Part shown: positions 10,087 through 28,991 of the stretch, piece by piece | How positions within the stretch are numbered: position 1 is the first letter of the stretch | Layout: each line of letters begins with the position of its first letter | NCBI GenBank assembly: GCA_964419615.1 | Contig: CAYQPU010000005.1 | Location: 1 to 58,036 of the forward strand | Direction of reading: 5' to 3' | DNA from: an uncultured Methanosarcinales archaeon | GTDB taxonomy: Archaea; Nanobdellota; Nanobdellia; Woesearchaeales; JAGVZT01 | DNA length: 58,036 nt | The notes under the pieces: model-generated | Seen by the model: only the letters and a program-made list of their open reading frames with translations | Databases searched by the model: none | Told to the model about the DNA's origin: nothing | Made by a program: the position numbers and the translations under genes

Positions 10087-10162
10087 AATATGGAATAATA
10101 TTTCATTAAATATATAAATTTATCTATTTATTGCAAAAAATTAGCAAAAATAAACAAAAACA

Positions 10163-10170
10163 TTTATAAA
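10163..10170 (+). promoter_or_regulatory. TATA box TTTATAAA for the Asn leader-asnA-asnS transcript
   Basis: Ends 22 nt upstream of the leader ATG at 10193. Confidence 0.6.
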
Positions 10171-10192
10171 TGATTTAACTCTTCTAGAAAAC

Positions 10193-10255
10193 ATGGCAAA
10201 ACAAATCAAATATCAAGTTCAAGTTTGTTTAGCTAATGCTTTTTTTAATAATTGA
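10193..10255 (+). CDS. Putative Asn-sensing leader peptide MAKQIKYQVQVCLANAFFNN* (20 aa)
   Basis: Manual translation: ends AAT AAT TGA upstream of asnA-asnS; parallels the Ser and Met leaders. Confidence 0.65.
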   Translation: MAKQIKYQVQVCLANAFFNN

Positions 10256-10316
10256 TCTGAGCAAATTGCTCTTACATTGAAAAAAAATTAAATAGGTACT
10301 TTATGGAGGTAATAAT

Positions 10317-11348
10317 ATGAAACAAACAATATTGGATGGATATGAATCAAAACTTGATTTTTTTGAGACTGAAATTGGAGTTAAGTTAATTAAGGATACA
10401 TTTGAAAAAAGGTTGGCTGAAAAATTGAGCTTACTTAGGGTTTCTGCACCAAGGTTTCTCAAAGTAGGAAAAGGATTGCAAGATGATCTTGCTGGTACAC
10501 AGGTTCCAGTTAGGTTCAAATCCAAGTTCACAGACAAAGATATTGAGATTGTACACAGTCTTGCTAAGTGGAAAAGATGGGTTTTGGGAAAATATGGGTT
10601 TAAATTAGGCACAGGACTGTACACAGACATGGATGCTGTAAGAAAAGATGAAGATGTTTCAGCTATCCACAGTATCTATGTTGATCAGTGGGACTGGGAG
10701 ATTATTCTTTCAAAAGAACAAAGGCATTTGGTTTTTCTCAAAAAAATAGTTGAGAGAATTTATGAAGCCTTGCTTGAAACAGAAGCTGTTGTGGCAGAAA
10801 AATTTCCAAGTCTAAAACCAACTTTACCCAAAGATATTCAATTTGTTCATACAGAAGAACTTGAAAAACGATTTCCAGACCTTAGCCCTAAACAAAGGGA
10901 GTATGAGATCACTAAAAAACTTGGAGCTGTGTTTTTAATTGGTATTGGTCACCCATTAGAATCTGGGGAACCTCATGATGTAAGGGCTGCAGATTATGAT
11001 GATTGGTCAACTAAGACAGAAGAAGGAAAAAAAGGATTAAACGGAGACATACTTGTGTGGGACAGTGTAAGAAAAGATTCACTTGAACTAACATCTATGG
11101 GAATTAGAGTGGATTCTAAAGCAATGGAGTTTCAGTTAAGTCATATGGGACTGGAAAAAAGAAAACTATTGGAGTTTCACAAAGGAGTTATTAAAGACAC
11201 AATTCCTTTAACAATGGGAGGAGGATTAGGTCAATCAAGAATCTGTATGCTACTTTTACAAAAAGCACACATTGCTGAAGTACAATCAAGTGTGTGGCCA
11301 GAAGAAATGGAAAAAGAATTTGAAGAGAAAAGAATTGCCATGTTGTGA
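10317..11348 (+). CDS. asnA: Aspartate-ammonia ligase (bacterial-type asparagine synthetase A)
   Basis: HSLAKWKR, YTDMDAVRKDE, YVDQWDWE, RAADYDDW, GGGLGQSR; SD GGAGGT at 10305. Confidence 0.93.
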   Translation: MKQTILDGYESKLDFFETEIGVKLIKDTFEKRLAEKLSLLRVSAPRFLKVGKGLQDDLAGTQVPVRFKSKFTDKDIEIVHSLAKWKRWVLGKYGFKLGTGLYTDMDAVRKDEDVSAIHSIYVDQWDWEIILSKEQRHLVFLKKIVERIYEALLETEAVVAEKFPSLKPTLPKDIQFVHTEELEKRFPDLSPKQREYEITKKLGAVFLIGIGHPLESGEPHDVRAADYDDWSTKTEEGKKGLNGDILVWDSVRKDSLELTSMGIRVDSKAMEFQLSHMGLEKRKLLEFHKGVIKDTIPLTMGGGLGQSRICMLLLQKAHIAEVQSSVWPEEMEKEFEEKRIAML

Positions 11349-11395
11349 AAACATTTTTAAAGGAGAAAAAAACAAGTAGTTTAGAGGTTTAAGAA

Positions 11396-12688
11396 ATGAA
11401 ATTTATCTCAATTCAAGAAGCAATAAAAAAAGGAAAAGGTAAAGTTTCTGTTAGAGGATGGGTTTATAGGGAAAGGGGCTCTAATAAGATGAAGTTCTTA
11501 GTACTTAGAGATTCAACACAGATAATACAATGCGTTCTTGCAAGAGCTGATTTTGAAGAGCAGTGGGGAGATATTGATGCACTTGGAATAGAATCATCAG
11601 TAAAAATGCAAGGACAGATAAAAAAGGATGCTAGAGCTCCAACTGGGTTTGAAATCAAAGCTGAAAAAATCGAGATTGTACAAAGTTCTGAGCCATTTCC
11701 AATAACTAAAGATCAATCTGCAGATTTTTTACTTGAAAAACGTCATCTTTGGATTAGATCAAGAAAAATGGTTGCAATTCTAAAGATAAGACATACTGTT
11801 GTTGGCGCCATACATGAGTTTTTTAGAAAAAGAGGGTATATTGAATTCAGCCCACCAATTTTCCAACCAACTCAATCAGAAGGAGGCGCAACTTTGTTTG
11901 AAGTTAAGTATTTCAAAGATAGAATGTATCTTTCTCAGACTTGGCAGTTGTATGCAGAAGCAGCAATATTTGGTTTGGAAAAAATTTATGATATGTCTCC
12001 AACTTTTAGATCCGAGAAATCTAAGACATCTAGGCATTTAACAGAGTTTTGGATGGCAGAAATGGAAGCTGCATGGATGAAATTAGATGAAGTTACAGAG
12101 GTTGCAAAAGAGGAGATTAGATTTATAATAAAGCAAGTGCTCAAGCATAACAAAGAGGAACTAAAAATTCTAAAAAGAGATGTCAAATTACTGGAGCATT
12201 ATGCTAAAGTTGATTACCCAACTATCAAGTATAAAGAAGCACTTGATATTCTAAATAAGAAATATAAAATGAAAGTGCCGTGGGGAAAGGATCTTAGAAC
12301 GATTGAGGAGGAAAAGATTGGTGATCACTTTAAATCGCCAGTTGTTGTTACTCATTTTCCAACAAAGATAATGGGTTTTTATAAGCCAAGCTCTCAGGAA
12401 GATCCAAAGGAAGCCTTGTGTTTTGATATGCTTGCTCCAGAAGGATACTGTGAGATTGTTGGAGGCTCTGAAAGAAGTCTAGACATTAAAGATATGGAAA
12501 AAAGACTTAAGGCAGATGGTGAAGATCCCAAACAATATGACTGGTATTTTGATTTAAGAAAGTATGGTTCAGTGCCACATTCTGGTTATGGTGTTGGTGT
12601 TGAAAGAGTGATTGCTTGGATATGTGGTCTTGACAATATCAAAGATGCAATTCCTTTCCCAAGGACTATGCTTAGGTACAAGCCCTAA
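11396..12688 (+). CDS. asnS: Asparagine-tRNA ligase
   Basis: OB-fold VRGWV, YLSQTWQLY, FRSEKSKTSRHLTEFWM, PHSGYGVGVER, IPFPR. Confidence 0.93.
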   Translation: MKFISIQEAIKKGKGKVSVRGWVYRERGSNKMKFLVLRDSTQIIQCVLARADFEEQWGDIDALGIESSVKMQGQIKKDARAPTGFEIKAEKIEIVQSSEPFPITKDQSADFLLEKRHLWIRSRKMVAILKIRHTVVGAIHEFFRKRGYIEFSPPIFQPTQSEGGATLFEVKYFKDRMYLSQTWQLYAEAAIFGLEKIYDMSPTFRSEKSKTSRHLTEFWMAEMEAAWMKLDEVTEVAKEEIRFIIKQVLKHNKEELKILKRDVKLLEHYAKVDYPTIKYKEALDILNKKYKMKVPWGKDLRTIEEEKIGDHFKSPVVVTHFPTKIMGFYKPSSQEDPKEALCFDMLAPEGYCEIVGGSERSLDIKDMEKRLKADGEDPKQYDWYFDLRKYGSVPHSGYGVGVERVIAWICGLDNIKDAIPFPRTMLRYKP

Positions 12689-26868: not shown

Positions 26869-26924
26869 AACCATTCATTGTTTACTAAAATTTATATATT
26901 ATCAATTTTTAGGAGGTAATTAAA

Positions 26925-28991
26925 ATGACAAAAAAACTAATCACAAGCGCCCTACCATATGCTAATGGAAGCATACATATAGGACATTTAGTAGAGTATA
27001 TCCAGACTGATATATTTGTAAGATTTTTAAAATTAAAAGGAGAAGATGCGATTTATTGTTGTGCTGATGATACTCACGGAACACCTATTGAGATCAATGC
27101 TGCAAAGCAAGGCGTGAAACCAGAAGAGTTTATTGCAAAGTTTTTCAAAGAGCATTTGAGAGACTTTAAAAAATTCCATATTGAATTTGACTCATACTAT
27201 ACAACAAATAGTCCTGAAAATAAAAAATATGTTGAGTTAATTTATAAAAGACTCAAAGATAAAGGACTTATTTATACAAAAGATCTTGAGCTTACTTATT
27301 GTGAGAACTGCAAGAGATTTTTACCAGATAGATATGTTAGGGGTACTTGTCCTAATTGTAAAGCAGAGGATCAATATGGAGATGTTTGTGAAAATTGTAA
27401 TACTGCTTACAAAACAACTGATTTACTAAATCCAAAATGTTCAATTTGTAAAAGCACACCAATAAAAAGGACTTCTAAACATTATTTTTTCAAACTAAGT
27501 TCTTATTCTGAAAAATTAAGAGATTGGTTAAATAACAATGAAGAGCTTCAGCCAGAAGTTAGAAACCAAGTCTTAGAATGGATTAATAAAGGTCTTGAAG
27601 ATTGGAATATTAGTAGGGATCCACCTTATTTCGGATTTAAGATTCCAGGAGAAGATGACAAATACTTTTATGTTTGGTTAGATGCCCCAATTGGATATAT
27701 TGCAAGTACTGCTAATTATTGTAAAGATAAATCAATTACTGCTGAAGATTACTGGCAAAAACCAGGCTCAGAAATTATTCATTTTATTGGTAAGGATATT
27801 ATTTATTTTCATCTTTTATTTTGGCCTGCAGTTTTAATGGGGGCTGATTTTAATCTGCCAAAGAATGTTTTGGTGCATGGCTTTCTGACTGTAAACAAAC
27901 AAAAGATGTCAAAGTCAAGAGGAACTTTCCTAACAGCAGAGGAGTTTGGAGAGCTTGCTAAACCTGAGTACCTTAGGTTCTACTATGCAGCTAATTTGGC
28001 TAGAAAAATGTCTGATGTAGATCTTGATTTGGATGATTTTAGAGAGAAAATCAATAATGAATTAGTGGCAAATGTAGCTAATTTCTTTTATAGAGTTTTA
28101 AGCTATTGCAATAAAACTTTTGACTCAAAAATAATTCCAGCAGAAAAAGAATTCTTAGATCAATTCGATTATAGTGAGATTATTAAAGATTATGACAATG
28201 TTGAATTTAGAAGTGCATTAAAAAATATTCTAAAGGTTAGCAGCCAAGGAAATAAGTATTTCCAAGATAATGAACCATGGGCTCTAATCAAAACTGATAA
28301 ACAAAAAACTCATCAGATTGTAAGTAATTGTGTTAACCTTGTGAAGGATATTAATACCCTGCTAAAACCAGTGTTACCTGAGTTTACAAAAGAAATTGAA
28401 AAACAATTAAACATAGGTGAGTTAAAAACAGATTCCTTGGGGAAAAACATAGGTCAGCACAAAATCAATAAAAGTGAAATTATTTTAGAGAAGATTGACA
28501 AAATAGAACTGGACGTTTCAGATCCATTTTCAAATCTTGATTTAAGGGTTGCCAAGGTTATCAATGTTGAGTCTCATCCAGATGCTGAAAAACTTTACAT
28601 AATGCAAATTGATTTAGGTGATGAACAAAGAACTATTGTTAGTGGACTTAGACCTTTTTATTCAGAAGATGAACTTACTGAGAAAAATATAGTGGTTGTA
28701 AAGAATTTAAAACCTGCAAAACTTAAAGGTGTTGAAAGTAAAGGCATGCTTTTAGCCGCTGATACCAAAGAAGGTGCAAAATTAGTTTTTGCTTCTAAAA
28801 GCAAACCAGGAGATGTTGTTAGTGTTGAAGGTATCAAACCAAATCCAAAAGATCAAGTAACAATAGAGGCGTTTAAGAAAATCAAGCTTTTTGCAGAGAA
28901 TGAAACAGCAACTTACAACAAAAAACAACTTAAGACTTCAAAAGAAAATGTGAGTGCTCCAGGAGTAAAACAAAAGACAAGAATTATTTAG
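26925..28991 (+). CDS. metG: Methionine-tRNA ligase with C-terminal tRNA-binding OB domain
   Basis: ALPYANGSIHIGH, Zn knuckles, YVWLDAPIGY, KMSKS, DLRVAKV; SD GGAGGT at 26912. Confidence 0.96.
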   Translation: MTKKLITSALPYANGSIHIGHLVEYIQTDIFVRFLKLKGEDAIYCCADDTHGTPIEINAAKQGVKPEEFIAKFFKEHLRDFKKFHIEFDSYYTTNSPENKKYVELIYKRLKDKGLIYTKDLELTYCENCKRFLPDRYVRGTCPNCKAEDQYGDVCENCNTAYKTTDLLNPKCSICKSTPIKRTSKHYFFKLSSYSEKLRDWLNNNEELQPEVRNQVLEWINKGLEDWNISRDPPYFGFKIPGEDDKYFYVWLDAPIGYIASTANYCKDKSITAEDYWQKPGSEIIHFIGKDIIYFHLLFWPAVLMGADFNLPKNVLVHGFLTVNKQKMSKSRGTFLTAEEFGELAKPEYLRFYYAANLARKMSDVDLDLDDFREKINNELVANVANFFYRVLSYCNKTFDSKIIPAEKEFLDQFDYSEIIKDYDNVEFRSALKNILKVSSQGNKYFQDNEPWALIKTDKQKTHQIVSNCVNLVKDINTLLKPVLPEFTKEIEKQLNIGELKTDSLGKNIGQHKINKSEIILEKIDKIELDVSDPFSNLDLRVAKVINVESHPDAEKLYIMQIDLGDEQRTIVSGLRPFYSEDELTEKNIVVVKNLKPAKLKGVESKGMLLAADTKEGAKLVFASKSKPGDVVSVEGIKPNPKDQVTIEAFKKIKLFAENETATYNKKQLKTSKENVSAPGVKQKTRII

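Follow-up and report, generated by a model that had tools for sequence, protein, structure and literature searches.

Introduction

Sensing of charged tRNA by a ribosome translating a leader peptide is a textbook bacterial mechanism, and the transcription attenuators trpL, hisL, thrL, and pheM-pheST are its classical examples. Archaeal promoters, termination, and translation initiation differ from those of bacteria, and archaeal RNA polymerase, too, terminates differently from the bacterial enzyme. We know of no Asn-specific leader peptide described in bacteria and, to our knowledge, asnA of E. coli has no leader peptide. Our full-text literature searches found no archaeal amino-acid leader-peptide attenuator. 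By analogy of layout, the closest published counterpart of the locus described here is the leaderless polycysteine short ORF of mycobacteria, a type of attenuator that acts by masking a Shine-Dalgarno sequence (Canestrari et al., bioRxiv 10.1101/834739).

The locus is a short Asn-ending mini-gene in front of asnA and asnS. Like the mycobacterial short ORFs, it would open a polycistronic mRNA as a leaderless frame and carry its sensing codons at the 3′ end; it is one of several leaders per genome that would form a ribosome-read regulon, and one of its relatives (L027) masks the next Shine-Dalgarno sequence. Unlike them, it is archaeal, has a TATA/TBP promoter, and ends in codons for Asn; no pairing links its codon tract to the Shine-Dalgarno sequence in the window, and we found no counterpart of the YTCAKTG tail of its family in 10.1101/834739. 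It resembles trpL, hisL, and thrL in being a short upstream frame rich in cognate codons, and pheM-pheST in the control of an aminoacyl-tRNA synthetase (10.1101/834739), but differs from the classical attenuators in that the sensing codons abut the stop codon and in that there is neither a terminator/antiterminator pair nor a hairpin-plus-U-run before asnA in the window. The asnC-asnA region of E. coli likewise has an Lrp/AsnC gene divergent from asnA with palindromic boxes between the two, although here the regulator falls below the AsnC equivalog cut-off and asnS is part of the operon. Lastly, translational attenuation of the ermC/cat kind, in which a stalled leader ribosome frees a masked ribosome-binding site, fits only L027 and one Val leader (val_G003); the trigger would be uncharged tRNA rather than a drug, and no such masking is seen in the window leader.

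Results and discussion

The asnA-asnS locus

The window, by which we mean the whole 58,036-nucleotide stretch of DNA that was analyzed, belongs to a genome of 1.48 Mb and 33% GC that encodes TBP and an orthologue of aCPSF1/FttA. The AsnA sequences closest to its own carry the names Candidatus Woesearchaeota or Nanoarchaeota and, based on these names, TBP, and the 3′ end of the 16S rRNA, we concluded that the host is a DPANN archaeon. The features of the leader region and of the related mini-genes are collected in Table 1. A sequence-only reading of this DNA had proposed an Asn-ended leader peptide before an asnA-asnS operon, and the frame that it described, opening at ATG 10193 and closing with AAT AAT TGA, is indeed present (10247-10255 for the closing codons). 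The genes flanking the leader also include corA. The Shine-Dalgarno sequence of asnA is complementary to the 16S 3′ end, ...GGATCACCTCCT (CCUCC), on contig C1. There is no terminator-like site between the leader frame and asnA in the window, and searches of Rfam gave no match to the leader at the gathering threshold and only chance-level hits at E values up to 10.

Table 1. Coordinates of the asnA-asnS leader region in the window, and mini-genes of similar design elsewhere (peptide endings are given up to the stop codon)
Feature	Position	Strand	Remarks
Divergent Lrp/AsnC-family regulator gene, 146 aa	9646..10086	-	Pfam AsnC_trans_reg (PF01037) 5e-14, plus HTH_24/HTH_AsnC-type
Imperfect palindrome ATGGAATAATATTTCAT, probable Lrp/AsnC box (putative binding site)	10090..10106	.	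adjoins regulator start
A-rich BRE-like stretch	about 10154-10162	+	before P1 TATA
TATA box TTTATAAA, promoter P1	10163..10170	+	starts 30 nt before ATG 10193
Leader mini-gene MAKQIKYQVQVCLANAFFNN, putatively leaderless	10193..10255	+	20 codons, stop 10253-10255
Further AAT codon in leader	10235-10237	+	
T7 tract, Phe-Phe codons	10240..10246	+	pairs with A-run in predicted fold
Terminal Asn codons AAT AAT, proposed sensing codons	10247..10252	+	directly before TGA
Post-stop hairpin GAGCA-AAT-TGCTC	10259..10271	+	predicted fold; present in 4/4 family-f1 copies
Tail motif TTACATTG	10272..10279	+	variant of the YTCAKTG tail common to the genome's leader mini-genes
A8 run	10280..10287	+	T7 partner, or BRE of possible second promoter
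TATA-like TTAAATAG, possible promoter P2 (uncertain)	10288..10295	+	29 nt before asnA ATG
Shine-Dalgarno GGAGGT of asnA	10305..10310	+	kept in L001-L004
asnA, aspartate-ammonia ligase	10317..11348	+	Pfam AsnA 3e-97; TIGR00669 389.5 bits, cut-off 292.8
asnS, asparagine-tRNA ligase	11396..12688	+	NF003037 486 bits, cut-off 414
Mini-gene ending TTTTTTA (T6)			before thrS (TIGR00418, 698 bits); TATA(-30)
Mini-gene ending VVVVVA (V5)			before valS (NF009687, 1060 bits); TATA(-30)
Mini-gene ending SSSSSQSS			before serS; TATA(-30)
Mini-gene ending MLAMRMR			before metG; TATA(-30)
Mini-gene ending RCCC	contig C2:45195-45230 (G000)		before SerK-like (ParB-fold) gene; TATA(-30); TTCATTG tail
Mini-gene ending LVRRR	contig C12:9487-9543 (G000)		before 103-aa protein, no NCBIfam match; TTCATTG tail
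Mini-gene MSLTININNTDCDSQ, ending NINNTDCDSQ	C12:16855-16902 (L197)		before archaeal PEP carboxylase (TIGR02751, 595 bits); TATA(-30); canonical tail

The genome also encodes a second asparagine synthetase, of the glutamine-hydrolysing AsnB type (TIGR01536, 481 bits; contig C17:3925-5574), and AsnA is therefore not the sole route to Asn. The region upstream of asnB contains no leader, and asnB directly follows another ORF.

A leaderless promoter geometry

In the host genome (G000), TATA motifs before the in-frame ATGs of long ORFs peak genome-wide at -30 (111 motifs) and -31 (62), whereas background positions have about 7 each. Because this peak is so sharp, we take leaderless mRNAs to be the norm, the majority of genes in this archaeon being apparently leaderless. 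The ATG of the Asn leader lies exactly at the peak position, and from this promoter spacing we infer that the leader itself is leaderless. The geometry recurs in eight orthologous leaders (TATA at -30/-31) and in L201 (-30). At asnA loci that have no mini-gene, the same promoter, consisting of an AsnC box followed by BRE/TATA, is located about 30 nt from the ATG of asnA, and the mini-gene therefore looks to have been inserted between the promoter and asnA; judging from the sequences, the insertion looks to have been accompanied by the gain of a Shine-Dalgarno sequence at asnA. As a general observation, leader-controlled genes have a strong GGAGG Shine-Dalgarno sequence, though most genes appear leaderless.

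Conservation of the Asn ending

We searched for asnA in 401 genomes of the order and found the gene in 35. An Asn-ending mini-gene occupies the leaderless position at nine asnA loci, drawn from six families. The frame ends FFNN both in the window (L001) and in the copy from the same genus (L002), ISNN in L003 (G006, family f1), ISNNQ in L004 (G002, family f1), DFNNC in L012 (family f2), FLDN in L027 (G228, family f32), LLSN in L008 (family f8), and RFNC in L032 (family f60). The ninth leader, L201 (G363, family f67), came under inspection only when the hypothesis had already been fixed; it reads MSYHIRYKTLVFCFVNSNSNNC and ends NSNSNNC. Several of the leaders were first recognized by their Asn ending, and the relatives are not independent. 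G006, the source of the ISNN leader and of the compensatory hairpin pairs discussed below, is an unpublished genome, and the permission of its depositors is needed for publication; the same applies to G249 (L015, asnA without a leader) and to G372, G307, and G118 (L202, L205, and L206, stand-alone asnS).

On its own, the leader in the window does not go beyond chance expectation, with two terminal Asn codons in DNA of 33% GC, where AAT is common; the case is a comparative one, and any single locus is weak. We therefore turned to a blind scan, in which ATG frames between 6 and 40 codons long were collected regardless of amino-acid content, provided that a TATA motif lay at -33 to -21. Upstream of asnA, 7 of 10 such frames had Asn within their last three codons and 4 of 10 had Asn-Asn, compared with 74/413 (18%) and 3/413 (0.7%), respectively, of the TATA-preceded short frames genome-wide. 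Background frames from the same loci gave similar figures: terminal Asn in 8/38 (21%; p = 0.006 versus the asnA frames) and Asn-Asn in 1/38 (2.6%; p = 0.005). Against this same-locus background, Asn is the sole residue of the 20 that is enriched at leader ends. When counted by lineage, about 5 of 8 have a terminal Asn (p around 0.01).

Several features of the frame suggest coding-like evolution: the L004 copy has gaps of 3 and 9 nt, both multiples of three, and the frame is 83% identical at the nucleotide level to the same-genus copy, versus 50-73% in the flanks. One might ask, then, if the frame encodes a small functional peptide, and the conserved length of the leaders (17-24 codons) together with their hydrophobic C-terminal halves would be in keeping with this. 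We nevertheless regard such a function as very improbable, given that just 13 of the 20 residues are common to the two copies within the genus and that, between families, the peptides cannot be aligned except for the start and the Asn end.

A minor regularity concerns the nucleotides that follow the last Asn codon. In six of the nine leaders inspected, which include L001, L003, L012, L027, L032, and L201, AAT is followed by TG, as AATTGA, AATTGT TAG, or AATTGC with TAG or TAA. The TG is retained both where it contributes to the stop codon and where it does not.

Association with asnA-asnS operons

At each of the nine leader loci asnS follows asnA directly, as it does at only 4 of the 23 asnA loci without a leader (Fisher p around 3e-5, a value to be read with the caveats that relatives are not independent and that a few leader-free loci are cut by contig ends). 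Among the best 30 asnS loci in the order, 25 contain a stand-alone asnS gene with no asnA nearby; no Asn leader precedes any of these 25 genes, and most of them are themselves leaderless. The expectation that relatives would show terminal Asn codons upstream of asnA or asnS hence holds for the nine asnA-asnS loci in six families, but does not extend to asnS standing alone.

Sister leaders for other amino acids

The host genome has further mini-genes (Table 1), and the codons of those before thrS, valS, serS, and metG match the gene downstream. The Asn leader, with TATA at -30, is laid out like the Ser and Met members, as had been noted from the sequence. These sister leaders share a YTCATTG tail 6-9 nt after the stop codon, usually followed by T-rich sequence. 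In relatives, codons and tail alike are retained by the orthologues of the Thr, Val, and Met leaders. Many sister leaders also contain a small hairpin with the stop codon in its loop, examples being CAGC-GUAA-GCUG in the Thr leader (z -3.5 to -4.2), one in the Ser leader (z -4.2), and one in the Val leader of G001 (z -2.6).

Two members of the set deserve separate mention. The mini-gene before the PEP carboxylase gene is rich in codons for Asn, Thr, and Asp, which belong to the oxaloacetate family of amino acids. In L245 (G001), the Met leader from the same genus, the frame continues across the CTCATTG tail to a stop codon 9 nt beyond it, so that the tail of the Met leader is conserved even where the stop codon has moved.

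The AsnC-type regulator

A divergent Lrp/AsnC gene lies beside asnA in most of the related loci. The palindromic boxes, which at the same place in relatives take the form TGGAA-N5-TTCCA or TGGAACATATGTTCCA, are retained at most asnA loci, among them the 23 that have no leader. NCBIfam matches of the regulator (Lrp/AsnC/LysM) are below the equivalog cut-offs. The retention of regulator and boxes with or without the leader suggests that the promoter is controlled by free Asn in addition to any control exerted by the leader.

The same observations could be taken further, in that the AsnC-type regulator alone might control asnA-asnS and the short frame might be a by-product of a conserved 5′ UTR that does not sense Asn at all; a leader with only two Asn codons at its end and weak structure would be compatible with this. 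We consider it unlikely, since it would not account for an Asn-specific enrichment at the ends of peptides that are otherwise unalignable across six families, for the exact leaderless spacing, for indels in multiples of three, or for cognate leaders before four aminoacyl-tRNA synthetase genes in the same genome.

Predicted RNA structure and the tail motif

The sequence-only reading had proposed that a hairpin follows the stop codon and that the T-tract plus Asn codon (TTTTTTTAAT, 10240-10249) pairs with ATTGAAAAAA (10276-10285), thereby masking an oligo-U tract of the kind used by archaeal terminators. The structural part of this proposal was recovered, in that the ViennaRNA minimum free energy structure of 10236-10290 is exactly the proposed nested fold, hairpin and T-tract/A-run pairing included, albeit a weak one (-8.3 kcal/mol, z = -1.9, with 10 of 200 shuffled sequences as good). 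The leader as a whole is no more structured than its shuffled counterparts (z = -0.3). The functional part did not hold up as a general mechanism: a run of at least five T residues before the Asn codons is found in L001 and L012 only (L002 has T4CT3), the A-run is limited to the genus (L001 and L002, the latter with T6A7 at this place), and A8 comes after the tail of the window leader, which has no U-tract downstream of either the hairpin or the tail. A U6 or U-rich tract between leader and asnA occurs only in L002 and L201.

The post-stop hairpin itself is found in all four family-f1 copies, as GAGCA/UGCUC, GGGC/GCUC, UGGC/GCCA, and GAGC/GCUC. L003 differs at two pairs, each altered in both arms, and L002 has a G.U in place of one pair, with individual hairpins reaching z scores of only -1.3 to -1.9. 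The 5′ arm begins 1-4 nt after the stop codon; while the last codons are being decoded, this position lies at the ribosome's entry. RNAalifold applied to the four copies (-1.1 kcal/mol) returned no conserved terminator/antiterminator or alternative pairs.

The f1 Asn leaders keep the tail as RCAYWG (ACATTG, ACACAG, ACATTG, and GCATAG), with a 12-13 nt hairpin inserted between stop codon and tail. In the window, the insertion is 13 nt and places the tail 19 nt after the stop codon, as compared to 5-9 nt, then T-rich sequence, in the sister leaders. Since the T-rich stretch is replaced by A8 in the window, this leader may have an output unlike that of its sisters, or a weaker one. The Asn leader of L201 has a canonical tail, TAA-tttat-TCAGTG-TTTTATTACTC.

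This part of the leader also lends itself to a different reading, namely that TTTAATAAT (10244-10252) is an internal TATA box with a transcription start near ACATTG, about 30 nt downstream, and that the Asn codons are a side effect. The distance from 10244 to A10274 is indeed 30 nt, and TTTAATAA serves as the P1 TATA box in L004. However, TTTAATAAT is not preceded by an A-rich BRE, unlike every P1; L003, L004, L201, and L008 have TCTAATAAT, CTCTAATAAT, or TTCTAAT, which are poor boxes; and the spacing from stop codon to tail differs in L201, L027, and L012 (5 to 12 nt). An internal promoter thus strikes us as quite improbable.

Other roles for the tail and its surroundings were considered. The tail is not an ordinary terminator, as it shows no enrichment after 1180 gene stops: TTCATTG or CTCATTG follows just 3 of these 1180, where T6 is enriched 2.6-fold. 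Frameshifting at U UUU UUU was rejected, as the -1 and +1 frames either meet a stop codon immediately or lack conservation. Within the tail, CAU is complementary to the 5′-terminal AUG, and the pairing extends in ten non-Asn leaders (permutation p = 0.005); no extension was seen in the Asn leaders, and we did not adopt this pairing for them. Finally, aCPSF1 prefers single-stranded CA (PMC3553952), a preference that the invariant CA of the tail fits; we treat this as a lead only.

Possible masking of the Shine-Dalgarno sequence

Constrained folds of eight orthologues revealed no consistent change in the accessibility of the Shine-Dalgarno sequence. In the window, the duplex between the stall region and the Shine-Dalgarno sequence has a z score of +1.0, that is, no pairing. 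Such a duplex is significant in L027 only (z = -3.9; fold of -11.7 kcal/mol), where the 9-10 nt right after the stop codon, UUUACCUCA, pair with UGAGGUAAA, the Shine-Dalgarno sequence of a second frame of 31 codons (MLQAIYIQ...) whose stop codon overlaps the ATG of asnA. The asnA match of this genome (G228) carries one in-frame TGA. Duplexes between tail and Shine-Dalgarno sequence averaged z = -0.35 over 22 leaders and were strong only in val_G003 and L027. Masking as a general switch was therefore rejected, significance being confined to L027 and the tails not being anti-Shine-Dalgarno sequences in general. With its Shine-Dalgarno sequence locked by the post-stop pairing, L027 would be turned on by a ribosome stalled there, and its sequence hence points to a polarity (stall, then expression on) rather than to a general mechanism.

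That neither the constrained folds, nor RNAalifold, nor the duplexes disclosed a conserved Asn-dependent RNA switch could also mean that the mini-gene is translated and regulatory, and yet reports on translation or coupling in general instead of on Asn, for example through a ribosome at the 5′ end that protects the leaderless mRNA against 5′-3′ decay, or through re-initiation; a tail motif common to leaders for different amino acids would sit well with this. It leaves unexplained, on the other hand, why the terminal codons match the downstream gene for Asn, Thr, Val, Ser, and Met, and we give it a low probability.

A proposed mechanism

Recurrence of the Asn-ended mini-gene at nine related loci leads us to conclude that it probably serves as a gauge of asparagine supply read by the ribosome, and comparison of these sequences makes the Asn sensor well supported. 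On balance, we favor a fuller scheme in which the leaderless Asn leader is read by the ribosome, a stall raises expression of asnA-asnS, and an AsnC layer is added; translation, stalling, the direction of the response, and the output step are the parts that we infer. The operon would be transcribed from the TATA box at 10163 as a leaderless mRNA with the 20-codon leader at its front, and the first ribosome would read the leader frame. When charged tRNA-Asn is scarce, this ribosome would wait on AAU-AAU, against the stop-proximal hairpin and the tail, and would thereby prevent a negative event at the hairpin/tail module, giving more asnA-asnS. When Asn-tRNA is plentiful, the ribosome would finish and leave, the hairpin (and, in the genus, also the T7:A8 stem) would fold, and expression would be damped. 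At the hairpin/CAKTG tail, the RNA might be terminated prematurely or processed; alternatively, the output might be unmasking of the ribosome-binding site as in L027. The divergent AsnC-type regulator would probably act on the same promoter with free Asn, resulting in two layers of control.

More tentatively, the Asn leader could belong to a class of ribosome-gated attenuators of the Woesearchaeales, which is possible, though we would not yet call it likely. A member of this class would consist of a leaderless mini-gene with its last codons set against a hairpin and a CAKTG tail, and the stalled ribosome would block termination or cleavage, possibly by FttA/aCPSF1 at single-stranded CA; the Asn member would be stacked on an AsnC-type regulator, a double control reminiscent of the trp operon. 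A conserved Asn leader that is linked to an asnA-asnS operon, as one of a set of cognate leaders before aminoacyl-tRNA synthetase genes, would mean that genome-reduced DPANN archaea regulate amino-acid supply via the ribosome and not through many transcription factors, and would provide a defined template for studying how transcription-translation coupling and termination are regulated in archaea.

Possible second promoters

Some of the leader-controlled genes have additional promoter-like sequences. A second BRE/TATA, ACCAAAA-TTTATATA, lies between the Met leader and metG (26880-26925 in the window). This P2 is kept in five genomes (including L245-L248), about 31-34 nt before the ATG of metG, and would yield a leaderless metG mRNA without the equally conserved Shine-Dalgarno sequence GGAGGTAA. 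Similar boxes precede serS, valS, and perhaps asnA (10288-10295), the box before asnA being absent in L003; leader-controlled genes may thus carry a basal second promoter. Within the gap between asnA and asnS (11349-11395), a TATA-like TTTTTAAA is found at 11354-11361, about 42 nt before the ATG of asnS; this box is retained in L199, L208, and L218, and asnS may therefore also have a promoter of its own.
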